From Escherichia phage MN03, in sequence record NC_070990.1: DNA of 64,000 bases. One strand, 5' to 3'. Every line of letters begins with the position of its first letter. Positions within the stretch are counted from its first letter, which is position 1. This document shows, one piece after another, positions 1,500-42,734 of the stretch. The position numbers were made by a program, and so were the translations under genes. Under the pieces are notes generated by a model that saw only the letters and a list, made by a program, of their open reading frames with translations, did not search any database and was not told the origin of the DNA.

Positions 1500-1723
1500 T
1501 TTCTCAATCCCAGCTTTCTTAAGATACGGCCTAACGTTGTTTCTTGCGTGATAATATAACTGATCGCTTCACGTTCCAGCGTTTCAATCTTCATTGGCGA
1601 CGGATACCATTCACCGGTAATAACACATTTACATTCAACGCCATACTTTTTAGATAGGCGGTAATGTTGACCATTGACAAGATTCCTATAAATCGTGGTA
1701 TGTGTAATTAACATGATCGTCAC
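1496..1723 (-). CDS. Hypothetical protein (75 aa)
   Basis: ORF track; 4-nt overlap with downstream gene. Confidence 0.4.
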   Translation of the reverse strand: MTIMLITHTTIYRNLVNGQHYRLSKKYGVECKCVITGEWYPSPMKIETLEREAISYIITQETTLGRILRKLGLRK

Positions 1724-1764
1724 CTTTGATTAGATTCTTTGATTAATGCACTGAATCAATGCAC

Positions 1765-1803
1765 TGATAAAAGAAAAGGCGCTACCCGTTAAGATAGCGC
1801 CTT
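1765..1803 (-). terminator. Rho-independent terminator-like hairpin downstream of the 1826..2725 gene
   Basis: aaggcgcta / tagcgcctt 9-bp inverted repeat with 10-nt loop, followed on the minus strand by tttcttttat. Confidence 0.55.
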
Positions 1804-1825
1804 ATGTTTATTCAAATTGTCTTAC

Positions 1826-2725
1826 TTATGCCGCCTGACGTGCCGCCATAATTTCAGCCGCTTTACGCAATACTTCTTCCTCTTCTGCTTTCGCCGCTTG
1901 TTCGGTACGGGTAGCAACCGTTGAAGAGATACGACCGCGCAGACTTTCTAACTTCTCCTGCATAGCTGCAACAGTCTTTTCCATTTCATCAGCGTATGAA
2001 TCGAGTGATTCTAATTCCTTGCTTGATGCGTTCATCAGATAATCATCCGAGATCGCTACCGTTGAGGCCGTGACTTTCTTGATGAGTGAATCAAAGGACT
2101 TTTTAACCTTCCCAACTTCTTCACTCAGGGCGATAGTGTTATCGCTGGTTGCGCCGTTGCGCTCATCAGCCAGTAATTTGGCTTCAATACGGATTGCATT
2201 CAAGCGTTCAACCAAAGCGTAAATATCCTGATTAAAATCTTCCTTGTTTTTCGCCGGAATTTGCAGGTGTGCCGCCACGTTGTCATTGCAACCTTTGTAG
2301 AAGTTAGGATTATCCACTTCAATTGCACGACCTAATGCAAAGTTTTCGAAAGCGTTTGACCAGCGAGCGCGGTTTTGTTCCATTTTGGCCTTAATTTGCG
2401 CTTCTTTCGCATCTTCTTTAGCTTTCGCCTCACCTTCCAGATTAATCCACTTTTTACGACCATTTGCCGCATCGGTGTTAAACTTGATAGGAGTTAAGAA
2501 AGTAATTGCGGTAGCGATAACATCCATATCACGGAAACGTTCAGTTAACAGAAAATCAACCGCCGTCTGCAATACTTCCAGCTTTTTACCGTTACTGCGG
2601 AAGTGCTGCAAGTGCCCTAACAGAAAATTAGAAACATCTTGTTTGATCGCCGCGTTATTGCTACGAATGTTGTTAGCCAGTGCATTAAAACCGGATTCGT
2701 TAACCAGAGTAAAGATTTTAGCCAT
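1826..2725 (-). CDS. Hypothetical protein (~299 aa), coiled-coil-rich C-terminus
   Basis: ORF track ORF 1826..2734; start moved to ATG at 2725, which has AAGGTGA 6-7 nt upstream; no family recognised. Confidence 0.55.
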   Translation of the reverse strand: MAKIFTLVNESGFNALANNIRSNNAAIKQDVSNFLLGHLQHFRSNGKKLEVLQTAVDFLLTERFRDMDVIATAITFLTPIKFNTDAANGRKKWINLEGEAKAKEDAKEAQIKAKMEQNRARWSNAFENFALGRAIEVDNPNFYKGCNDNVAAHLQIPAKNKEDFNQDIYALVERLNAIRIEAKLLADERNGATSDNTIALSEEVGKVKKSFDSLIKKVTASTVAISDDYLMNASSKELESLDSYADEMEKTVAAMQEKLESLRGRISSTVATRTEQAAKAEEEEVLRKAAEIMAARQAA

Positions 2726-4096
2726 GATATTCACCTTTCAATTGTAAGGGCGCTATTGCCCCGCTCTCTATGAGCTTGTTTAAGTCACTATTAACTTAAC
2801 TATAACCACTCGTTGTTAAGTAGTTATAGGTAAGCGGGGCGGTCTTATCAGGAGTTAACCTTGCCGCCCCCTTATCCGTGATGTTTCATCTGGTATCTTT
2901 AATTAGTCGCTATAAACGAAGCCGACCTGATAGCGATGATCAATCATCACAATAAGGCTATGCGTCCGACTCTATTTAATTACATTGCTGTAACCGTCGG
3001 CAATATCGTCTACTTTGTTTTCGCTCCCGCTTATCCTTTTGTATCAGCTCTCTATCGCTAGTCATCGCCCACTACGGGATACTATTGCGAAAGAGTCACT
3101 AACCGCCTAATATTCCGGCGTTTTATATCTTTCAGCAGGTTTACTACATAACCCGGCTATGTACTTTCATCCTATGATGAATCTCAAGCCGTTCACATCG
3201 TAAACGTTCGCATTAAACCTTATTGTTAAATAGCAATTTGCCACTTTTTAACCACTCCCCGCCGCTCTCAATTGAGCGTTAATTCGTCGGACTTGCCTAC
3301 CCTGATTAACTTCTTTCACTGTAGCACCGTGTTAGCAATGACCTCCGCTACCCTTAACCGTGGGCGATTAGCTCAAGTCTTTGCGTGTACTCAATGAATC
3401 CGTTTATCAATGGTGACGTTTCCAGTAAGGGAATGTAAAACTGTTTACCCTGATAATTTAGGGAGTTTTACGCCGTTTTATCTGGTATGCTTTCCGATGG
3501 TTATTATCATCAAGCATATTCAACCGATATAGGAGAATGTTTAAATTATTAAAGAGCGGTAAATCTATCAGTGTGCTTTCTCACACTATGCAACTGTTAG
3601 CCGTTGTTACGCTTTTCACTGAAGCGATGATTTGCTTAGTGAGTGCTCATTATGAATCATGTTGTTTTCGCTGTCAACCGCTTTTTAATCTTTTTTCGTC
3701 GTTCCCGCTATTGGGAGGATATATCAATCAGCTTTATTTGATTGAAGATTAAGCGGTGAGGCTTAACTTATGACTCATATTGTTAAAGAGCGTTTAGCCT
3801 TTTAAAGTGTCTGCTAATCACTGTCACATTGAAGGCTTACTGATTCATTAACAGGCCGCCTACACCTGAACTAATCGCTGCACTATGTGCCACCTTTCCC
3901 GCGATACGTTGATTTGGGAACTAGTTAGCGATGTTTTGCTAACTTGTGGTTAGTATGGACTACTTTAACCACGTTTGCAACTCTTTTTATCATCTTCTTT
4001 TAATTCCTTTCCCTTATCTCGCGTGAATCTATGCGAAAGGGCAAGATGATAAGTTTTTAAAGAGCGGGATTTTTTAAGTCATCGCTGACTATGCTC

Positions 4097-4125
4097 ACTA
4101 TATATCAGGCTTTTTCCGGTGTCAA
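4097..4125 (-). promoter_or_regulatory. Candidate sigma70-type promoter (minus strand): TTGACA, 17-nt spacer, TATAGT
   Basis: Minus-strand reading of 4125..4097 is TTGACAccggaaaaagcctgataTATAGT; perfect -35 and 5/6 -10 with canonical spacing. Confidence 0.4.
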
Positions 4126-4509
4126 TACTCTTTTTTGAGAATATTTTCACTTTCTAGCCTGATTTTTAAAGAGCGGGGCAATTTCTTGCCTTGTATGTTT
4201 TACATCGTACCCGATGAAATGAAGTATACGCTAATCAGATGAGGTTGCAATAGGGTAAAGCAAATTATTTTAAACTTTTTCACTATAGGAAGGTAAAAGA
4301 GCAGGCGCACGCGATACATCATAGAAAACGGCTTGTAAAGCGATATTTAGCGGCCTAAAACGCATCACAACGGGCTAAAAGGGAGTAAGGCATACAATCA
4401 CCTCATAAAAGAGAAAAGCCTCACTAGGAGGCTTACAGGAAGGATTAGAGAATCAGATAAATTATGACCATAGGCATGACTACGGCACAATACAGGAGAA
4501 AGATTAAGC

Positions 4510-4887
4510 CTATGGATTTACACATTGACCATTACCGGACTCAATTTCATTCATGGACTCATCAAAGAGCGTCAACGATGAGCGCATCAAGTGATCTATC
4601 GTGATTTGTTTACCGGTAGTTTCATTTACCAGCAGAATAGCTTTGTTATCTGATTGCACATGATCAAAATCATTTACATGCAAAATAATAACTTTAGGTG
4701 ACTGTTTACCAGTTTCATAGTTTTCTATCAAATAGGTGCACTGTAAACCGTCAACCGTAGCAGGGGAGAACATTGCAGCCTTAACACTACCCATAGACGA
4801 TAGGAGAACGCCCAGCAGGAGAACGACAAGGAAGAAGCCCACGAATACTTTTACTACAAATTTGATAATACCCATGATAATAATCAC
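4510..4887 (-). CDS. Hypothetical membrane-anchored or secreted protein (125 aa)
   Basis: ORF track; N-terminal hydrophobic stretch IIKFVVKVFVGFFLVVLLLGVLL. Confidence 0.4.
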   Translation of the reverse strand: MIIIMGIIKFVVKVFVGFFLVVLLLGVLLSSMGSVKAAMFSPATVDGLQCTYLIENYETGKQSPKVIILHVNDFDHVQSDNKAILLVNETTGKQITIDHLMRSSLTLFDESMNEIESGNGQCVNP

Positions 4888-4972
4888 CTATAGTTAGAGA
4901 ATATAAGAATAAAGCATATCAGCGACGAATAACGCCACTGTAACGACGAACAAGCAACGCCAAAAATAATCA

Positions 4973-5248
4973 CTATTCATCGTTGCTATTCTCGCCAAAA
5001 AATGCTACGCTAATCTGTTCCACTTCTTCCAGCGACAGGAGAATCCCGCGTTGGGCTAAATACTTCCCAACAGTTAGATAATCTTGCACTAAACAGACAA
5101 TAGGAAAGCGTATATTTTGAATCTCACCTTTGGAAAGAAAAGACAAATATCCAACGTCGATTGATTCATCAAAGGACAATGTAACGCCACCGTAATTATG
5201 CGTATCAATTAACGCAATAGTTTCATTTCCCATTGGTATCATCCCCAA
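4973..5248 (-). CDS. Hypothetical protein (91 aa)
   Basis: ORF track; overlaps upstream ORF by 26 nt. Confidence 0.3.
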   Translation of the reverse strand: MGMIPMGNETIALIDTHNYGGVTLSFDESIDVGYLSFLSKGEIQNIRFPIVCLVQDYLTVGKYLAQRGILLSLEEVEQISVAFFGENSNDE

Positions 5249-5489
5249 TCAGACCATGATTAAGCAGGTTAGCCAGCGACAAATCACCGTCAATATAGAT
5301 TGATCTGAAATCATCGCGGGTAATTTCGAAATCAGCAAAGGCTAGCCAATCTTTAAGAGGCTGATATTCCATCCTGCAAAAAGTGATAACAGGCAAGATT
5401 ATCTGACCATCAAGTGTATTAAACTCGATAGATTGCCCACCAACAAAACAAGAAAAGCCGTTTGATAACTTAACTTCTTTGATAGCCAT
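5223..5489 (-). CDS. Hypothetical protein (88 aa)
   Basis: ORF track. Confidence 0.3.
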   Translation of the reverse strand: MAIKEVKLSNGFSCFVGGQSIEFNTLDGQIILPVITFCRMEYQPLKDWLAFADFEITRDDFRSIYIDGDLSLANLLNHGLIGDDTNGK

Positions 5490-5514
5490 TTTTACACTCC
5501 TGAAAATAGGTTAT

Positions 5515-6006
5515 TTACTTACTAGCCTTAATACAGTTGGCTAAACTAACGTGAACGGTATAAACAGCGTTATTAGCGTTATTATAAACAGTTGTAGCAA
5601 TCATCGACTCATTGATCGGGCCATAACTCACCAGATTGGTTACAGCTTTAACGTCTTCGTAACGTTGTACAGTGCCAAATGTAACCATATCCGAGTCACT
5701 ATCGGTGCGCTTGAGAACTAGATCATTGTTAGGCTGATTGTCTAGTGTCTTAGACTGAAAGAGAACGCCATCATTAGTTACGTTACTAAATTTCATCTTT
5801 AGCACAATGGTAGTGCCGTCACTATCCGCACCGTTGCAAATCATCCAACCTTTGTTGATGGAACTAACGAAAACACTAGCCGCATCAGTTGCAGGAGCAG
5901 GACTAGCAACAGCCTTGTCAGAAAGAGATGTGACCAGTGCACTAACACCAATCGCTGCAACCAGTGCATAACTTGCCAGATTAACTACCTGCATTGATTT
6001 AGCCAT
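5515..6006 (-). CDS. Secreted protein with predicted signal peptide (163 aa)
   Basis: N-terminus MAKSMQVVNLASYALVAAIGVSALVTSLSDKAVA then SPAP; Sec-signal-like. Confidence 0.5.
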   Translation of the reverse strand: MAKSMQVVNLASYALVAAIGVSALVTSLSDKAVASPAPATDAASVFVSSINKGWMICNGADSDGTTIVLKMKFSNVTNDGVLFQSKTLDNQPNNDLVLKRTDSDSDMVTFGTVQRYEDVKAVTNLVSYGPINESMIATTVYNNANNAVYTVHVSLANCIKASK

Positions 6007-6871
6007 TTGTGAATCCTCGTTGATATGTATTTGGTTTCATGTTTCACAAGATAGCACGTGTTTCTGATTCACACGTAGGGCCATTGCTCAGTTGACCACT
6101 TCACTGACTCGATAGTGTTCCAGCTTTCACCAGTCAATCGCAGAGTCCTTATCTTTAAACATTCTCCACTACTTAGACTGATCAGTCTTCATGGAGCTTA
6201 CTACTATCTAGCTACTTTGCATCACTGCTTCGCTTCGATGAATACAATTTACTACTACTTAATAAGGAAAGCAAGTGCTACGGGTAAACTATTTCTACTA
6301 TCTATATAGGACGGGGAACATACAACCGCAGAGCAGACCACGGGGAAACATAGCAAGATAGTGCGGTAGTAATATACCACTTAAATAATTGTATAACTCA
6401 AACATCAAAGACGTTCGCTACGCTCACAAAGGCACGCTGAAAAAGGAAAGTAATAAAAGAATAATAACATACATCAACCATTATCCACTTAATTAATACA
6501 TATATCATTATTGCACTCATAATAACAACTATTGAAACTATTTACACTCAAACTATGGGGAGCTGTGACCATCATTAATGGCATTATTAGTATGCTAATT
6601 AGTTGGCCTGTACAGTGCTGGCCTTTCTCTCACTCTCTAAAGGGGAACTAAATAAACGGGTAGCTAATGAATAGGATGGTATACACGGGGAAAGAATAAC
6701 GGGGAGTAGGCACGGGGAAAGGTGGAACGTTGAAAGGGAAGGTAAAGGCATTGCCAATAACCCTTTTTTAAATGAGGACTCCCCCTTTTTAGGAAACGCG
6801 CGGCGAGCGGCTAGCCCCATTCGGTCAAATCAGAATTTTAAACTCTTATATATAAGGTTGAAAGAGAACTT

Positions 6872-7036
6872 ATGTGGAAAATTAAGTTAATCATTAAGCA
6901 ATTCAAATGTGATCATGAGTACTATCGGATACGCAAAGCTTACGGGGATGAAAGAGTTCACACCCTTTATAAGTCCACTTGGAGATGTAGTAAATGTGGT
7001 AAGCTTAAACACAGCACATGGATGGACAGACCTTAA
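6872..7036 (+). CDS. Small putative zinc-ribbon protein (54 aa)
   Basis: ATG at 6872, stop at 7034-7036; MWKIKLIIKQFKCDHEYY...WRCSKCGKLKH; below ORF-track size cut-off. Confidence 0.3.
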   Translation: MWKIKLIIKQFKCDHEYYRIRKAYGDERVHTLYKSTWRCSKCGKLKHSTWMDRP

Positions 7037-7270
7037 CGTGACATGGCCTTAACATGAGGGTGCCTTAACATGAAGTAGTCATCAAAGATGACGTCCCCTT
7101 TATGTCTTAACTTTATCAGAGGGATGTATGACAGAAGATGAATACGGTAGCTTCTCTGAAGAAGACTACGAAAATGAATACAGGTATTCTCACGGGTGTT
7201 AATGTGAGGTGGCCTTTACGGGTATGTCTTATGATGTGCCCTTTATACTCTTATTCAGAGGAGAAGAATT

Positions 7271-7525
7271 ATGAATTTAGTACTAGACTTTTTATCAGAG
7301 ATGGTGCCTCGGTTCAGAACGGAGACATACGCTTTCGTGGTCAACAGTGACTCTGAAGAAGGGATGGAAGCTACTTGCTTAGGCCGTCTTGTTGATTTAG
7401 ATGATGAAACAGATTTCGATATTACAATTGATGTGAGTAGCTTAGGTTGGCTCTTCTTCAGAGCATTCCGCACTTACAGAAAAGAAACATACAAAGATTA
7501 CAGCAAGGGAGAGACAGATGAATAA
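7271..7525 (+). CDS. Hypothetical acidic protein (84 aa)
   Basis: ORF track; GAGGAG Shine-Dalgarno 8 nt upstream. Confidence 0.45.
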   Translation: MNLVLDFLSEMVPRFRTETYAFVVNSDSEEGMEATCLGRLVDLDDETDFDITIDVSSLGWLFFRAFRTYRKETYKDYSKGETDE

Positions 7526-8841: not shown

Positions 8842-10383
8842 ATGTCATTAGATAAACAAATTTATGAAGCTCTAACTGGTAACAATCTTAGTGTAGACGA
8901 AAAGAAAGCACTATTGAATATGTTGAAAGAGCGTGACCAATGGAGGAAGTATAATAGGATTTTGTCTTTCAAGGCGTATGACTTCCAAAAGAAATTTTAT
9001 GCAGCAGGATTGAAGCATCGCTTTAGATTCTTGTGTGCAGCGAACCGTGTTGGTAAATCTTACAGTGAGGCATACGAGTTTGCTTGTCATGTCACAGGTC
9101 GCTACCCAACTTGGTGGACAGGATATAAATTTAAAAGACCTATCTTAGCATGGGCAGTTGGTATTACAGGGGATTCCACAAGGAAAGTATTGCAAAAGGA
9201 ATTGTTTGGTACACCTATCGGAAAGGATACAAATTTATTGGGGACAGGTGTCATTCCTCGTGATGCTATCGTCATTGACACGATAGAACGAGATGGTAAC
9301 AAACTTCAAATCGTACAAATCAAACATCAAAACGAAAGAGGAGAGTTTGACGGTTTAAGTACATTAGAATTCCGTTCAACCCAACAGGGTGAACACACAT
9401 TGATGGGTGCAACAGTTGACTACATTTGGTTAGACGAAGAAGATCCATACGAGTCTATGGCTATATTCGCACAGTGCGTCACACGTACACTCACAACTAA
9501 AGGTCTAGTTACAATTACAGCTACACCAGAGAACGGTTTAACTGAACTGGTAGATAAATTTATGAAAGGTGAAGGGGATGAGAACACAGGTTCTCTATAT
9601 TTCCAGAATGCTTCTTGGTGGGATGCTCATGCAGACCTAGGTGGACATATCACTGACCAAGATATAAAAGATATGACTGAAGGTATTCCAGCGTGGCAGT
9701 TAGAGATGCGTTCGAAAGGTATGCCATTGTTAGGAAGTGGTTTGATTTATGATGTATCGGATGACACAATTAAATGTGAACCATTCGAAATTCCTGATAC
9801 GTGGAAACGTGTCTGTGCAATTGATATTGGTATTGATCACCCAACTGCTGCTGTTTGGACAGCTTACGATGCAAACACGGATACTATCTATGTTTACGAC
9901 TCATATAAAGAAGGTGGCTTTACTCCAGTGTATCATGCTCCAGCTATTAATGGTCGTGGTCAGTGGATTCCTGTCATCCTACCGCACGATGCGGACAATA
10001 TTGAGAAAGGTAGTGGCTCATCTGTTGCTCAATTCTATAAGAATGCAGGAGTTAACGTACAGAGTGAGACCTTCTACAACAAAATTGGAATGGATGGTAA
10101 AAAGAACTTCTTTGTAGAACCGGGAATCACAGATATCCGAGAAAGAATGATGAGTGGACGCTTTAAAATCTTTAACACAGCCGCTAATGCTAAGCTATTC
10201 GAAGAGAAAGCTAGATATCACCGTAAGGTTGGTAAGATTATTAAAGAACATGATGACTTAATGGATGCAATGCGCTATTCAGCGTGCTCTGTTACACATC
10301 GTGGTCGCTCTAAGCATGACGTTAGCTACGGAAGTGCTTCTCTGTATGAGGCAAACGTAAGCAGATGGAATCAGAGTTACTAA
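8842..10383 (+). CDS. Terminase large subunit (513 aa)
   Basis: Walker A-like CAANRVGKS, Walker B-like IWLDEED, size and position before portal; GGAGG SD. Confidence 0.85.
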   Translation: MSLDKQIYEALTGNNLSVDEKKALLNMLKERDQWRKYNRILSFKAYDFQKKFYAAGLKHRFRFLCAANRVGKSYSEAYEFACHVTGRYPTWWTGYKFKRPILAWAVGITGDSTRKVLQKELFGTPIGKDTNLLGTGVIPRDAIVIDTIERDGNKLQIVQIKHQNERGEFDGLSTLEFRSTQQGEHTLMGATVDYIWLDEEDPYESMAIFAQCVTRTLTTKGLVTITATPENGLTELVDKFMKGEGDENTGSLYFQNASWWDAHADLGGHITDQDIKDMTEGIPAWQLEMRSKGMPLLGSGLIYDVSDDTIKCEPFEIPDTWKRVCAIDIGIDHPTAAVWTAYDANTDTIYVYDSYKEGGFTPVYHAPAINGRGQWIPVILPHDADNIEKGSGSSVAQFYKNAGVNVQSETFYNKIGMDGKKNFFVEPGITDIRERMMSGRFKIFNTAANAKLFEEKARYHRKVGKIIKEHDDLMDAMRYSACSVTHRGRSKHDVSYGSASLYEANVSRWNQSY

Positions 10384-22952: not shown

Positions 22953-25900
22953 ATGGCGCTGTATCCAATAAAGTCACTAGGTGCTGTAGGCGTTATCGCT
23001 GATCAGGCTCCGACAGACTTAGCTCCTAATGCTTTCACTAATGCTATAAATGCTCGATTTGTTGAGCAGAGAGTATTTAAGACGGGGGGCAATGCCCCTC
23101 TTTCTTATGTAGATGAAGATAAGGATTTAACCCCTCTGTCTTTCGTTTCTATGCCTTTCGATTATTATAGCGCAGGTAATAGCTTTCTTGTTGTAGGTAC
23201 GGATAAGAAGTTATATAAACTGACAGATGAAAGCTTGACTGATATTAGCCGTAAGGTTGCTACAGTCACTAAGAAGGCTTCTGCCTCAATTAAGATTTAT
23301 CCAGTTGTTTCTCAGATCGTTCCTAAAGAATCAACTATCTCAATGAACTTCAATCAGACCAAGAATCTAGAGGTTTCTCTTCTCCCTGCTGATGCTAACA
23401 ATACTGATCTTATTTGGGAGGTTAGTAACTCATCCTATGGAAGTATTGCGGTAGACCCTAGTGACTCTAAACTTGCTACTCTAACATCTTTTGAGAAAGA
23501 GGGTAATCTTGTAGTAACTATCTCTACTGCCAATGAATCCGTAGTGGCTCAGATTGCTGTTAATATTATCGACGGTGATTCAGGCATCTTCTTGAGTCAA
23601 GACACTGTTACAATTCGTAAAGGGGGGACTACTACTCTCACGGCTGTTACTGGCAAAACTCCTGTAACTTGGTCCAGCAATAACGCTTCTATTGTATCCG
23701 TAACCCCTAACGCCAACTCTTTAACTGCTGTCATTACAGCGAATGGAGAAGGTAATGTAACAATCACTGCTGATAACGGAACGAAGATTGCTTCTTGTGA
23801 GGTTGTTTCCATCCCTCAGATTGATAGTATCTCTTTAAGCCAGTCAGATGTTACTGTTAGTAGAGGTTCTCAGTATATCTTAACTGCTACCCTTTCTCCT
23901 GCTAACGCCCCTAATCAAAATATTACTTGGACCTCTTCTAATCCAAATATTGCAACAGTATCAGGGACTAGCACACAAGGGACGATCAACGCTCTACTTG
24001 CTGGTTTTACTGAGATTACAGCTACCACTGAAGAAGGTAACAGAGTTGCTGTCTGTACTGTACGTGTGGATTTAGCTGGAAGGACAATGAGAACAAGTGC
24101 TATGGCATTTGCCGCTCCTGTGTCAGAGTCAGTAGAAACTCAAGAGGAAGAAGTAGTAACTCCTCCTGAAAGTGAAGAGACGGTTTATTTTGCTGAGCCT
24201 ACATCCGGTATTGATACGTCAGGGATGTACGAAGGTAATAACTTCTATGACTACTCTAACGTGAATGACATTGAAGGTTTTGCAAGAGCTTCTTTACTGG
24301 CAACCCCTTTGTCATCTGTAACCTTAGATATTGTCAGTGCTTCTCTTGATGTTGGTGAAGAGATTGTCATTACAGCCACAGCTTCTCCAGAAGGTGAGTA
24401 CTCTTATCAGTGGTCTGTTGATAAAACTGGTTATGTTTCTACAACCTCAGTTACTGGTAAATCTATCAAACTGGTTGCTCTTCGTAAAGGGGAGATTAAT
24501 GTAACATGTACTGTCAGTCAGATGACTCAGAAAGATTACGATGCTTTTGATGACTATCCTTGGTATCACGCTGTTATCTCTAACTGTGCAGTTGCTACAA
24601 CTCACTATGAAACTCCTCAGGTAAAAGAATTCGAATCAGAATACTTTGTAGACCTTCCGGGATGGGGTGAGCAAACAGTTGTGGATAATGATGGAAACCC
24701 TTCAGTCAAGAAGTTTAACTGGAAATGTGAGAGAGTAAGATCTTTTAACAACCGTCTTTTTGCTCTGAATATGAGAGAGGCTAATGCTTCTGGTGTTACC
24801 ACTAACTATCCGCTTCGTCTTCGTTGGTCTAACTTTGCCAATGAGAACAAGGCTCCTACACTGTGGGATGACTTTGCCTATGATCGAGTTGTGTCTTCGG
24901 ACTTAGCTTCTAACATCGTAGGGCAGACTCAGGCTCTAGAGAATGGGTATGCTGGTTACATTGACTTAGCTGACTCTAATGGTAGCTTGATTGATATCCT
25001 GCCTCTTAAAGATTACTTGTTTGTTTATACAGAGTTTGAAACGTATATTGGTTCTCCAACTAATAACACGTACCAACCTCTAATGTTCAAGAAGCTTTTT
25101 AACGACTCTGGTATCCTTGCTCCTGAGTGTGTGGTTGAAGTAGAAGGTAGTCACTTCGTAGTTACTCAGAACGATGTAATCTTACACAACGGTGCAACTA
25201 AGAAATCAATTGCATCTAACCGTGTCAAGAACATGCTGATTAACGAGGTGTGTCTGGTTAATCCTTTAGCAACTCGAGTACACTTGCATCAGGATAAGAA
25301 AGAGGTTTGGGTTCTGTATGTAGGTCCGGGGGAGCCAAAAGAAAGCTTCGCTTGTACTAAAGCTGCTGTATGGAACTACGAGTTTGATACTTGGTCCTTC
25401 CGTACTATCCCATATGCTCAGTGTATTGGTCTGGTTGATCCTCCTGTTTTAGAAAGAGGTCCAATCTGGTCCGACTTCCAAGAAATCACTTGGGATGATC
25501 CATCTATTAAAGAACTCGTTTGGAGAAAGGATGCAACAAACTTTAGACAGAGGGTTACGATAGTAGGTTCATTCTTGAAGGGATTCTATCAAGTGGATGT
25601 GGGTGCTCTTGATTACTTCTATGACAGGCTAAATGATGTTGTTATAGAGAAGCCTCTGGAAATGAGGTTGGAGAGGACTGGTATAGATTTTGATAATGTG
25701 ACGAATGAGTGGAATCAGAAGCATATTAACAGGTTCCGACCTCAGACAACTGGTTCAGGTACTTACATATTTGAAGCTGGTGGTAGTCAATTCTCAAATG
25801 AATATGGACACCCACACACATCTAAGACATATACGATCGGTGTTGACAGGCATGTCTCGGTGAGACTGAACCATCCATACCTTTTCTATAATGTTATAGA

Positions 25901-42666: not shown

Positions 42667-42725
42667 AGTGTAATTTCCTTATTTAATTTGAAAGATTGTT
42701 GCTCTCTTTGAGCGGTTATGTATAG

Positions 42726-42734
42726 TATACATTA
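42726..42734 (-). promoter_or_regulatory. Phage-type promoter element TAATGTATA (minus strand), ~60 nt upstream of the SSB start
   Basis: Plus-strand tatacatta at 42726-42734. Confidence 0.45.

Follow-up and report, generated by a model that had tools for sequence, protein, structure and literature searches.

Evidence for a large structured RNA and rRNA-leader-like boxA elements in a conserved gap of phiEco32-like phages

A conserved non-coding gap in the early region

Escherichia phage MN03 is a Kuravirus (phiEco32-like) coliphage. In the stretch of its genome analysed here (64,000 nt of record NC_070990.1, hereafter the window), a gap of 1.8 kb separates the homologues of gp124 and gp125 within a leftward early region that is transcribed from sigma70 promoters (Table 1), and the early region of phiEco32-like phages is known to be sigma70-dependent (PMC8948821). 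The gap is present in 96 of 96 related phage records, and its position in the sigma70 early region is compatible with the role in host takeover that an earlier note on this DNA had suggested. The taxonomy of the matches (Gordonclarkvirinae) ruled out an N4-like phage with hairpin vRNAP promoters. No match that would point to a host or prophage origin of the gap was found among 5,426 E. coli genomes, and a conserved 22-nt segment of it had no match among 185,579 species genomes. The gp124 homologue downstream has no Pfam match above the cut-off and no sequence match in the PDB, its PHROG is listed as 'unknown', and its AlphaFold model is poor (pLDDT 65, pTM 0.41); a strong intrinsic terminator follows the gene at 1803..1776.

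Table 1. Features of the gap and its borders, in the order of minus-strand transcription (numbers after 'noted at' are the motif positions given in the earlier note)
Feature	Position	Strand	Details
Intrinsic terminator	4416..4434	-	AAGCCTCCTAGTGAGGCTT then TTCTCTTTTA; end of the upstream early operon (gp125 homologue) and upstream edge of the non-coding unit
Predicted promoter P0	4223..4250	-	weaker sigma70-like, TTGCAA-16-TATACT, consensus match 9/12; ~41 nt upstream of boxA-1
boxB-like hairpin	4177..4190	-	GGCAA-GAAA-UUGCC (GNRA loop), local fold; directly 5' of boxA-1
boxA-1	4164..4174	-	GCTCTTTAAAA, exact GYTCTTTAANA; noted at 4168
Predicted promoter P1	4097..4125	-	TTGACA-17-TATAGT, 11/12, A-tract upstream; predicted start ~4090; conserved across phages
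boxB-like hairpin	4077..4090	-	AGUCA-GCGA-UGACU (GNRA loop), local fold; 11 nt 5' of boxA-2
boxA-2	4055..4065	-	GCTCTTTAAAA, exact consensus; noted at 4059; mosaic junction, ~185-nt extra domain in some phages
Highly conserved block, long hairpin	3980..4054	-	92-98% column identity in 17 phages; z = -3.2
Replaceable/variable segment	3797..3978	-	in only ~7/17 panel phages
boxA-3	3781..3791	-	GCTCTTTAACA, flanks CGCTCTTTAACAAT; noted at 3785; ~+1046 from gp124 ATG in all phages
Predicted promoter P2	3649..3677	-	TTGACA-17-CATAAT, 11/12; predicted start ~3642; conserved in close and divergent relatives
boxB-like hairpin (helix 5)	3569..3588	-	UAGUGUG-AGAAAG-CACACUG, 10 nt 5' of boxA-4; complete covariation of the stem between lineages; loop similar to that of host rrn boxB
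boxA-4	3547..3557	-	GCTCTTTAATA, invariant; noted at 3551; fixed ~+813 from gp124 ATG
Domain I	3247..3545	-	~299 nt, helices 6-19; long-range closing helix, 5' strand starting 3 nt after boxA-4
Hairpin hp20	3228..3246	-	overlaps invariant boxA-like GCUAUUUAACAAU (1 mismatch); between Domains I and II
Domain II	2949..3226	-	~278 nt, helices 21-33, many covarying; closed by 10-bp long-range helix
3' hairpin series	2747..2948	-	hp34, 35, 37, 39, 40, 41, 42, up to gp124 RBS; 91% of pairs kept in divergent loci; includes the copy noted at 2758
gp124 homologue	1826..2738	-	299 aa; SD 2738..2731, ATG 2725, CDS; always co-inherited with the RNA

The gap had been described as poor in ORFs, with 60 aa as the limit. 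That description holds in substance, although the longest ORF in 2735-4509, at 71 aa, slightly exceeds the limit. This ORF (3537..3752, plus strand) has AGGAG upstream, and a few annotators have called small ORFs in the gap (seven in EK5, ten in CHD5UKE1, and others in MN05 and Paul), which would fit conserved small protein genes overlooked by gene callers. However, 2-nt indels break the frame of the 71-aa ORF in phiEco32, Bas91, LAMP and SU7, and most annotators, those of the BASEL records included, have left the gap empty. Variable columns are spread evenly over the three codon phases in the gap (159/159/168, p=0.85), in contrast to gp124 (48/77/230, p=8e-36), and a 3-nt periodicity of substitutions appears in none of the 150-nt windows of the gap but in every window of the flanking genes. 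The periodicity test ruled out hidden ORFs as a candidate, and we regard conserved small genes in the gap as highly improbable. Conservation of the gap nevertheless equals that of the neighbouring gene, codon periodicity being absent, and 46% of its columns vary as against 76% at third codon positions. The gap is non-coding yet under selection.

As a non-coding region close to an end of the linear genomes as deposited, the gap might also be thought to hold the physical genome ends, as had been proposed. This proposal does not hold up: the 193-nt terminal repeat of phiEco32 aligns at 6621-6812 with 96% identity, ~2.1 kb from the gap, the terminal repeat of phage 4E8 is annotated at the same homologous place, and the GC skew changes sign at ~6550. 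The genome ends are at ~6621-6812, and ends or packaging signals within the gap have practically no chance.

boxA elements and their cassettes

On the transcribed (minus) strand, TTAAAGAGCG reads CGCTCTTTAA, which is boxA; the gamma-proteobacterial consensus of this element is GYTCTTTAANA (PMC5725501). Exact TTAAAGAGCG occurs four times in the 64 kb (3549, 3783, 4057 and 4166), always on the plus strand and within 630 bp. The form AAAGAGCGG is found three times against 0.36 expected, the copy at 3785 being AAAGAGCGT, and exact GYTCTTTAANA six times in the window against 0.53 expected, with four of the six in the gap, all minus-sense. These copies are real and do not occur at random.

The motif family itself has to be redrawn. 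The copies that had been listed at 3551, 3785, 4059 and 4168 form the boxA family, but those at 2758, 3262 and 42705 are unrelated hairpin arms, so that one motif in two orientations gives way to a family of only four copies, all minus-sense. In the RNA sense the copies at 2758 and 3262 read GAGAGCGG and are 3' arms of small GCUC...GAGC hairpins (helices 41/42 and 19) that belong to the structured RNA described below. The copy at 42705 is GCTC-AAA-GAGAGC beside a gp36-type promoter (TAATGTATA, 42726-42734, minus strand) and does not match boxA. With one mismatch allowed, GAGCGGGGC is found 7 times where 3.7 are expected, which is no more than chance, and GCUC-N-GAGAGC hairpins, considered as a second motif family, were rejected as not significant. 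The gap contains no gp36-type promoter; all five exact TAATGTATA sites lie elsewhere.

The boxA elements recur throughout the relatives. All 24 close relatives carry three to five copies each in the same sense, with only three matches on the opposite strand over all loci. In eight divergent loci, whose gp124 shows 47-70% identity, 23 copies were counted, every one of them upstream and on the strand of the gene. These divergent copies read GCTCTTTAACAATTTA and agree with the leader of E. coli rrn operons over 16 nt. The arrangement of promoter, hairpin and boxA is the same in all 32 relatives examined, the divergent ones included.

The near-consensus minus-strand promoter that had been noticed at 4125..4097 was confirmed as a sequence match (P1), and a second promoter-like site with the same score lies at 3677..3649 (P2). 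Three of the four boxA copies in the gap follow a predicted promoter, those behind P1 and P2 at 11/12 each and that behind P0 at 9/12; boxA-3 lacks both a clear hairpin and a promoter within 130 nt. Promoter-like sites in 1500-7500 are fewer than expected overall (9 versus 15.7 in shuffles), although two of them score 11/12. In the relatives, many boxA copies lie 17-130 nt downstream of a predicted promoter (9-12/12), and some cassettes have no detectable promoter. On these matches P0, P1 and P2 are probably active as promoters. Hairpins stand 0-11 nt 5' of boxA-1, boxA-2 and boxA-4, giving the order boxB-boxA, and their sequences and loops vary among cassettes and lineages (GAAA, GCGA, AGAAAG, UUA and GUAGAAA). 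Three local MFE folds leave boxA free of pairing. When a longer stretch is folded, an AAAGAGU further downstream can pair with boxA-2 and could mask it.

This layout closely resembles the leader of E. coli rrn operons, in which a boxB hairpin, boxA and boxC follow just after the promoter (PMC10250234). Shared with it are tandem strong sigma70 promoters (predicted in the phage), a boxA preceded by a hairpin whose loop is of the UGAGAAA(A)AGC type, a boxA sequence that equals the host's over up to 16 nt (GCUCUUUAACAAUUUA), an untranslated RNA downstream that is long and highly structured, and a long-range closing helix whose 5' strand lies just 3' of boxA. In rrn operons a second boxA set stands upstream of the 23S rRNA, and in the phage the two large domains are separated by a boxA-like element. 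In contrast to rrn, the hairpin-boxA spacing is 8-11 nt (3 nt in rrnG), and the unit has three to five boxA copies, belongs to a virulent phage and has a protein gene downstream. Moreover, boxC (UCUGUGUGGG, expected 18-19 nt downstream of boxA) was found nowhere in 2735-4509 with up to two mismatches allowed, and the equivalent position is occupied by a strand of a long-range helix (helix 6). The rrn leader would thus have been copied incompletely.

Host-type boxA next to a stem-loop, downstream of early promoters, is also found in the nut sites of lambdoid phages (PMC10250234), where a phage N-like protein acts with boxA and Nus factors to carry early transcription through terminators. If the same were true here, early transcription would continue into early and middle genes further downstream and the RNA would be incidental. 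The combination of boxA with a neighbouring hairpin that has a GNRA-like loop recalls nut, a study of phage 7-11 proposed an antitermination strategy, left undefined, for phiEco32-like phages (PMC8948821), and a strong intrinsic terminator lies 3' of gp124. Nevertheless, the hairpin precedes boxA here, as in rrn, whereas the nut order is boxA, boxB, boxC (PMC10250234), and the phage is virulent and unrelated to lambdoids. Because hairpins and loops differ among cassettes and lineages, a single sequence-specific N protein is unlikely. Pfam scans of the neighbouring early proteins gave no match and no N-like candidate, and 880 nt of covarying structure, described below, would be left without explanation. 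We consider lambda-style nut sites improbable.

It is also conceivable that the motif acts on DNA, its copies being either the iterons of an origin of replication or operators to which a DNA-binding regulator of the phage would attach, and that the gap is conserved as DNA. Four direct repeats lie in one orientation within 630 bp, they are located at mosaic junctions (boxA copies coincide with insertion or replacement breakpoints at ~3796 and ~4054), and the literature searched gives no definition of the replication origin of phiEco32-like phages. However, more than 100 copies examined match the 11-nt RNA consensus exactly and always in transcript sense, the gap has a GC content of 0.36-0.44 with neither an AT-rich unwinding region nor a skew switch, and its body is explained by covariation and by a strand asymmetry of G-U pairs, as expected of RNA only and not of duplex DNA. 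A function at the DNA level is therefore very unlikely. The elements are best read as RNA signals that would load host Nus factors onto RNA polymerase, and the regulator-binding region that had been suspected survives in this form, but not as a stretch of DNA to which a phage protein binds.

A large structured RNA on the minus strand

Downstream of the last boxA lies a folded RNA of ~880-900 nt (3626..2747, minus strand), in which 99.1% of the 252 predicted pairs are canonical. Changes on both sides are seen in 82 pairs; shuffles gave 36.6+-3.3 (0/500) and slid registers 9-14. When the other strand is read, only 88.3% of the pairs in these helices are canonical and the consensus energy rises from -247 to -165 kcal/mol, and this asymmetry of G-U pairs assigns the RNA to the minus strand. 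Out-of-sample loci retain 77% of the pairs compared with 34-44% in slid registers, and a profile built for nhmmer matches these loci at E = 5e-109 to 1e-19. The most conserved core, GCUAAUC-CCCACGGUUAAGGG-AGCGG, is in Domain I. In the most divergent group only 46% of the Domain I pairs hold, near the slid-register background, which may reflect misalignment or real divergence; a covariance model of the Domain I core found nothing in the divergent loci with default filters and, with filters off, gave collinear marginal matches (E 0.06-0.11).

No Rfam 15 family, GOLLD, ROOL, OLE, introns, RNase P, 6S and tmRNA included, matched the window at its gathering score, and a search of 2500-4600 at E<=10 yielded nothing above noise (all E>1, no more than 20 bits). 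No tRNA or tmRNA was found, and neither rRNA nor any host sequence resembles the RNA. The suggestion that the region may encode non-coding RNA is thereby borne out: the evidence strongly supports that the gap encodes a previously undescribed large structured RNA, read on the minus strand.

This RNA could be nothing more than a very large cis-acting 5' leader of gene 124 that controls translation, stability or timing of the gene product and has no function of its own, with boxA letting the polymerase reach the gene. No intrinsic terminator was found between P1 and gp124, the 3' hairpins adjoin the gp124 SD, and the 96 phage records that contain the RNA are precisely those that contain gp124, the two being found together in divergent loci as well. 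Furthermore, boxA in an E. coli 5' UTR regulates downstream genes (suhB; PMC5725501). On the other hand, ~880 nt of covarying multi-domain structure far exceeds known bacterial leaders, the most conserved core is ~620 nt from the start codon, and helix 36, which pairs into the coding sequence, has no pair changed on both sides. A role confined to cis is, in our judgement, rather unlikely.

Proposed role and relation to known systems

We think it probable that leaders mimicking those of rrn operons protect, and perhaps help to fold, a long untranslated early RNA. The gap would be a non-coding unit, on the minus strand, of the early programme that depends on host RNA polymerase, and it would open with tandem cassettes in which a strong sigma70 promoter is followed by a small purine-loop hairpin and a consensus boxA. 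In the transcript this element would be bound by NusB/NusE(S10) of the host, and NusA, NusG and SuhB would join to turn RNA polymerase into a termination-resistant complex of the rrn type; boxA has been found necessary and sufficient to form the rrnTAC (PMC10250234). Protection would be needed because the following 0.9-1.35 kb are untranslated and would otherwise be a target of Rho, which ends untranslated RNA, and boxA is known to shield long untranslated CRISPR transcripts (PMC7665894). The product would be the ~880-nt RNA, with two domains of ~300 nt and the 3' hairpins, continuing without a terminator into gene 124. As the 5' strand of the closing helix of Domain I begins 3 nt after boxA, the boxA complex may aid long-range folding, as proposed for pre-rRNA. 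Binding of Nus factors, protection from Rho and assistance in folding are what we infer from the sequence and placement of these elements. Complexes of the rrn type act chiefly on Rho-dependent termination, and action of Rho on an RNA this structured is an assumption.

More tentatively, the RNA (~0.9 kb, two closed domains) might represent a new class of large ornate RNA in Kuravirus-like phages, produced, by mimicry of the rrn leader, with the machinery that the host uses specifically to transcribe and fold its rRNA, and acting in trans in host takeover. It could, for example, form an RNP with gp124, serve as a decoy for some RNA-binding or defence factor of the host, or act as a sponge that draws Nus factors and SuhB from host rrn operons by means of the three to five boxA copies per transcript. 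We hold this as a possibility of somewhat less than even chance.

Two known systems are close in part. CRISPR arrays likewise have a promoter-proximal GYTCTTTAANA boxA before a long untranslated, Rho-sensitive RNA (Stringer et al. 2017, PMC5725501), but they are host loci with a single boxA, whereas the phage unit has several copies and a large folded RNA. GOLLD, ROOL and OLE (PMC12286853) resemble the phage RNA in exceeding 500 nt, in their multiple domains and covariation and, for GOLLD and ROOL, in their association with phages or prophages. The phage RNA differs in its lack of any sequence or structure match in Rfam 15 (up to E<=10), in its confinement to Kuravirus-like podophages of E. 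coli, and in its linkage, which is with a boxA leader and gp124 instead of tRNA clusters.

Our literature search found no link between boxA and phiEco32 or virulent phages, and this would be the first case found of a virulent non-lambdoid phage with host-type rrn boxA leaders. It would offer a concrete answer to the question of antitermination in early transcription of phiEco32-like phages (PMC8948821), as well as a natural test of the idea that a complex anchored at boxA chaperones long-range RNA folding. Large, intricately folded non-coding RNAs are rare, and new classes have so far proved informative. Because the phage family is well known and easily grown (phiEco32, ES17, SU10 and Bas86-94 of BASEL, with several members in therapy work), the RNA is open at once to knockout, probing and imaging. 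Approximately 1.8-2 kb per genome is currently unannotated or is mis-annotated with spurious small ORFs.

The mosaic structure of the gap recalls the PeSL cassettes of T4-type phages, reportedly conserved stem-loops with early promoters that border swapped modules (Arbiol et al. 2010). The phage boxA copies share with these cassettes the border position, at the module breakpoints ~3796 and ~4054, and differ in that the conserved element would be an RNA signal for Nus factors and the modules are non-coding.

A conserved non-coding gap in the early region

The window belongs to a phiEco32-like podophage, and its segment 2400-4900 matches 96 phage records at 75-99% identity; the hosts of all 96 are Escherichia or Shigella, and those with assigned taxonomy are Gordonclarkvirinae (Kuravirus, Suseptimavirus or Nieuwekanaalvirus). 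The gap between the gp124 and gp125 homologues lies within the leftward early gene cluster, which in phiEco32 is transcribed by host sigma70 RNA polymerase (PMC8948821). Most depositors, including those of the BASEL records, left it unannotated; its equivalent in phiEco32 spans 1,944 bp from phi32_124 to phi32_125. The earlier note had considered physical genome ends within the gap, but the 193-nt terminal repeat of phiEco32 aligns at window 6621-6812, and the ends therefore lie ~2.1 kb away.

The description of the gap as ORF-poor holds, as the longest ORF in 2735-4509 has 71 aa. In an alignment of 17, later 25, phages (75-99% identity), the degree of conservation in window 2735-3800 and 3986-4050 matches that of the gp124 coding sequence. 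Variable columns fall by codon phase as 48/77/230 in gp124 (p=8e-36) and are also periodic in gp125 (p=4e-7), whereas the gap gives 159/159/168 (p=0.85), with 3-nt periodicity absent from every 150-nt window scanned. Variable columns make up 46% of the gap versus 76% of gp124 third positions; thus, the gap is under purifying selection without coding for protein. Hidden small protein genes are made very unlikely by the absent periodicity and by 2-nt indels that break the 71-aa ORF (at 3537) in several phages. The gap DNA has no counterpart in E. coli genomes, and a conserved 22-mer from it had no match among 185,579 species genomes.

As for the flanking genes, our analyses gave no functional clue to gp124. 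The gp125 homologue (4510-4875, minus, 121 aa) is labelled 'terminase' in many records via PHROG 13168; this is probably a propagated mis-annotation, because the protein is small, has an N-terminal hydrophobic helix and lacks a Pfam match. The true large terminase (Terminase_6N/6C) is encoded elsewhere.

boxA motifs and predicted promoters

The 64 kb contains exactly four occurrences of TTAAAGAGCG (3549, 3783, 4057 and 4166), all on the + strand. These copies sustain part of the oriented motif family proposed earlier; the supposed inverse copies at 2758 and 3262, like the one at 42705, have nothing but GAGCGG-like cores in common with the motif, and the inverse copies are 3' arms of RNA helices 19 and 41/42 of the model described below. 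The motif reads CGCTCTTTAA on the minus strand, which also carries the flanking early genes and the two strong promoters. The functional gamma-proteobacterial boxA consensus GYTCTTTAANA, derived from rrn and suhB (Baniulyte et al., PMC5725501), has six exact matches in the window versus 0.53 expected. Chance frequency, a possibility raised earlier, applies to GAGCGGGGC with one mismatch. Four matches, boxA-1 to boxA-4, lie in the gap; the other two (GTTCTTTAATA; 10239-10249 and 25505-25515, minus) are antisense within + strand late genes and are probably due to chance. They would occur in antisense transcripts, if such exist. In each of 24 other phages, the gap holds 3-5 exact matches, all oriented alike; two sites keep a constant distance from the gp124 ATG (~+813 and ~+1046 nt), and the remaining copies shift with exchanged modules.

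Features of the gap and gp36-type elements in the window
Feature	Position	Strand	Remark
Intrinsic terminator	4434..4416	minus	ends upstream gp125 operon
boxA-1	4164-4174	minus	exact consensus match
P1 (predicted sigma70 promoter)	4125..4097	minus	TTGACA-17-TATAGT, 11/12
boxA-2	4055-4065	minus	exact consensus match
boxA-3	3781-3791	minus	exact consensus match
P2 (predicted sigma70 promoter)	3677..3649	minus	TTGACA-17-CATAAT, 11/12
Predicted RNA start	~3642	minus	
Leader hairpins	3626..3591	minus	
boxB-like hairpin	3588..3569	minus	
boxA-4	3557..3547	minus	exact consensus match
Domain I	3545..3247	minus	long-range closing helix, 5' strand from 3 nt after boxA
Hairpin hp20	3246..3228	minus	overlaps invariant boxA-like GCUAUUUAACAAU
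Domain II	3226..2949	minus	closed by 10-bp helix
Seven further hairpins	down to 2747	minus	
gp124 Shine-Dalgarno	2738..2731	minus	ATG at 2725
gp36-type elements	15694, 32547, 42798	plus	
gp36-type elements	42726, 49752	minus	

The minus-strand promoter recognized earlier, P1, is confirmed as a consensus match, and P2 equals it in strength. Three of the four gap copies of boxA lie downstream of a promoter (P1, P2 or the weaker P0, 9/12); for boxA-3, no promoter lies within 130 nt. Many copies in relatives have a 9-12/12 sigma70 promoter 17-130 nt upstream, and about two-fifths of those scanned have no detectable promoter. No terminator-like site was found on the minus strand from 4090 to the gp124 start.

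A small hairpin with a GNRA-type loop precedes each of the three promoter-proximal copies (GGCAA-GAAA-UUGCC, AGUCA-GCGA-UGACU and UAGUGUG-AGAAAG-CACACUG). The order promoter, hairpin, boxA is that of the host rrn leader, boxB-boxA(-boxC), and differs from the boxA-boxB-boxC order of lambda nut (PMC10250234). In rrn, boxA alone is necessary and sufficient for the antitermination complex (PMC10250234). The phage leaders lack a boxC sequence. The host rrnG P2 leader comprises TTGACT-16-TATTAT, hairpin loop UGAGAAAAAGC, 3 nt and UGCUCUUUAACAAUUUA; that of phage P2 comprises TTGACA-17-CATAAT, hairpin loop UGAGAAAGC, 10 nt and CGCUCUUUAAUAAUUUA. All 5,426 complete E. coli genomes contain the host leader sequence CACTGCTCTTTAACAATTTATCAGACAATCTGTGTGGGCACTCG (median seven copies), ~93 nt upstream of 16S rRNA. 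From sequence, strand, position and hairpin context, we file the motif as boxA with predicted Nus binding, and hold with good confidence that it would work as a Nus-dependent boxA.

Breakpoints of replacements and insertions between phages recur at ~3796 and ~4054, adjoining boxA-3 and boxA-2, and NJ01 and LAMP carry an additional promoter-boxA cassette; boxA, being short and invariant, may be a point at which recombination shuffles non-coding modules. Directly 3' (RNA sense) of boxA-2, at window 4054, an optional ~185-nt insert occurs in Bas90 (L001:6655-6839), phiEco32, KBNP1711, ECBP2, Bas91, Paul and EK010. Its 11-bp perfect closing helix, UGAUUUGUCUU/AAGACAAAUCA, starts ~4 nt after boxA, and the insert looks like an extra RNA domain, with only three compensatory pairs among six sequences and a fold z-score of -0.9. 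Across all panel phages, the Suseptimavirus type among them, block 3980-4054 (minus) just downstream of boxA-2 shows 92-98% conservation. It folds as a long hairpin (z = -3.2), in which boxA-2 can pair with AAAGAGU at ~3985-3979, and varies too little for covariation. Only ~7 of the 17 panel phages have segment 3797-3978, the others showing a replacement or a deletion; within it, 3839-3878 is one arm of a 40-nt inverted repeat (70% complementary) whose other arm, 3364-3403, falls in Domain I.

The published gp36-holoenzyme promoter element TAATGTATA has five exact copies in the window versus 0.68 expected, none in the gap; those at 42726 and 42798 are divergent. Just downstream of the former, a GCTC-AAA-GAGAGC hairpin (~42700-42714) lies ~35-48 nt upstream of the start of the 41920..42666 gene, a placement resembling that of RNA hairpin hp41 ahead of gp124.

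A predicted large structured RNA on the minus strand

RNAalifold, applied to the minus sense of window 3660-2700 from 25 distinct phages, predicted 252 pairs (consensus energy -247 kcal/mol, covariation term -24), with standard pairs in 99.1% of alignment cells. Both sides have changed in 82 pairs, versus 36.6+-3.3 in column shuffles (0 of 500 reach 82); registers slid by 1-3 columns gave 9-14 such pairs, with 35-47% of cells pairing. At many pairs, three or four pair types occur, implying that changes arose independently more than once. On the + strand, the share of canonical pairs in these helices falls to 88.3%, since G-U makes up 11% of pairs, and that strand's own consensus energy is -165 kcal/mol; the modelled RNA is therefore the minus-strand transcript, which fits the promoters and boxA. 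The non-coding RNA envisaged in the earlier note is strongly supported by this covarying model, and we regard the existence of a large minus-strand structured RNA as very likely. Covariance-model and tRNA searches placed it in no known family: no Rfam 15 family matched at gathering thresholds, no meaningful hit came up at E<=10, and ARAGORN found nothing. We assign it to a new family of large structured RNA; candidate roles are a trans-acting RNA, an RNP formed with gp124, to which it is always linked, a sponge for Nus factors and an unusually elaborate cis-leader.

The best-conserved core (3343-3370, minus), GCUAAUCGCCCACGGUUAAGGGUAGCGG, a CCC/GGG hairpin with loop ACGGUUAA, stays almost unchanged in loci whose overall identity is ~55-60%; it may be a site of protein binding or tertiary contact. 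C4 is a critical position in E. coli boxA. An invariant boxA-like sequence, GCUAUUUAACAAU / GCTATTTAACAAT (3224-3236, minus), has one mismatch, C4 to A, and may for that reason be unable to bind Nus factors; partly within hp20 and exactly between Domains I and II, it is reminiscent of the second boxA set that rrn operons carry ahead of 23S rRNA.

Divergent relatives and a proposed antitermination role

A gp124 protein search found homologues at 47-70% identity on assembled contigs, from which eight loci were taken. Upstream of the gp124 homologue, all eight have 1.4-3 kb free of called genes; this stretch carries 2-3 exact boxA matches on the gene strand, 23 over all loci, and no others occur on either strand in the ~67 kb. 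The RNA-proximal copy is always GCTCTTTAACAAT; in the 70% group it is GCTCTTTAACAATTTA, which matches the host rrn leader over 16 nt. In six of the eight loci, an 11/12 sigma70 promoter stands 65-75 nt upstream of this copy, and a hairpin 8-11 nt 5' of it has wholly different stems between lineages (CAAAG/CUUUG, CAAGG/CCUUG, GUGAUAG/CUAUCAC, GCGGGC/GCCUGC, GCAAGU/GCUUGC).

The 25-phage alignment profile detects the RNA in these loci (E = 5e-109 to 1e-19). When the divergent sequences were added by sequence alignment alone, 77% of the helix pairs predicted from the close phages were canonical in the 70% group, with 85-91% for Domain II and the 3' hairpins, versus 34-44% in slid registers, and each added sequence brought 22-39 new fully compensatory pairs. 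The 47-49% group kept 56% versus 36-42% in slid registers; Domain I alone reached 46%, near that background. A Domain I core covariance model gave only marginal matches (E 0.06-0.11), three in all, each as far from the gp124 ATG as expected and retaining the core GCUAAUC-CCCACGGU-AAGGG-AGCG.

Rho terminates transcription of untranslated RNA, and long untranslated rRNA and CRISPR arrays resist it via a promoter-proximal boxA (PMC7665894). In the phage, untranslated RNA extends 0.9 kb from P2 and 1.35 kb from P1 before gp124, host Rho is active, and a host-identical boxA stands behind each promoter. The most economical reading, in which we infer all protein steps, is that nascent boxA would load NusB/NusE, which with NusA, NusG and SuhB would form an rrn-type termination-resistant complex that would take polymerase across the RNA into gp124. 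According to the rrn model, the leader strand can pair with a distant trailer strand because boxA stays fixed at the RNA exit channel (PMC10250234). Because the closing helices of Domain I and the insert start 3 nt and ~4 nt after boxA, respectively, the analogy suggests that the phage may also exploit such folding assistance. Antitermination by boxA and large structured RNAs are already known kinds; in the literature searched, which did not include the two original phiEco32 papers, neither was described for phiEco32-like phages, and no description of boxA in virulent phages was found. The combined account, a structured RNA behind Nus-dependent boxA leaders, seems to us reasonably likely.

Three divergent loci (L032:1955-5000, L033:1983-5000 and L035:1935-5000) have ~3 kb without called genes before the gp124 homologue, the other flank being a leftward late or terminase-side gene. 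The boxA cassettes and RNA account for only ~1.0-1.4 kb of this stretch, and the rest is probably genome ends and further non-coding sequence.
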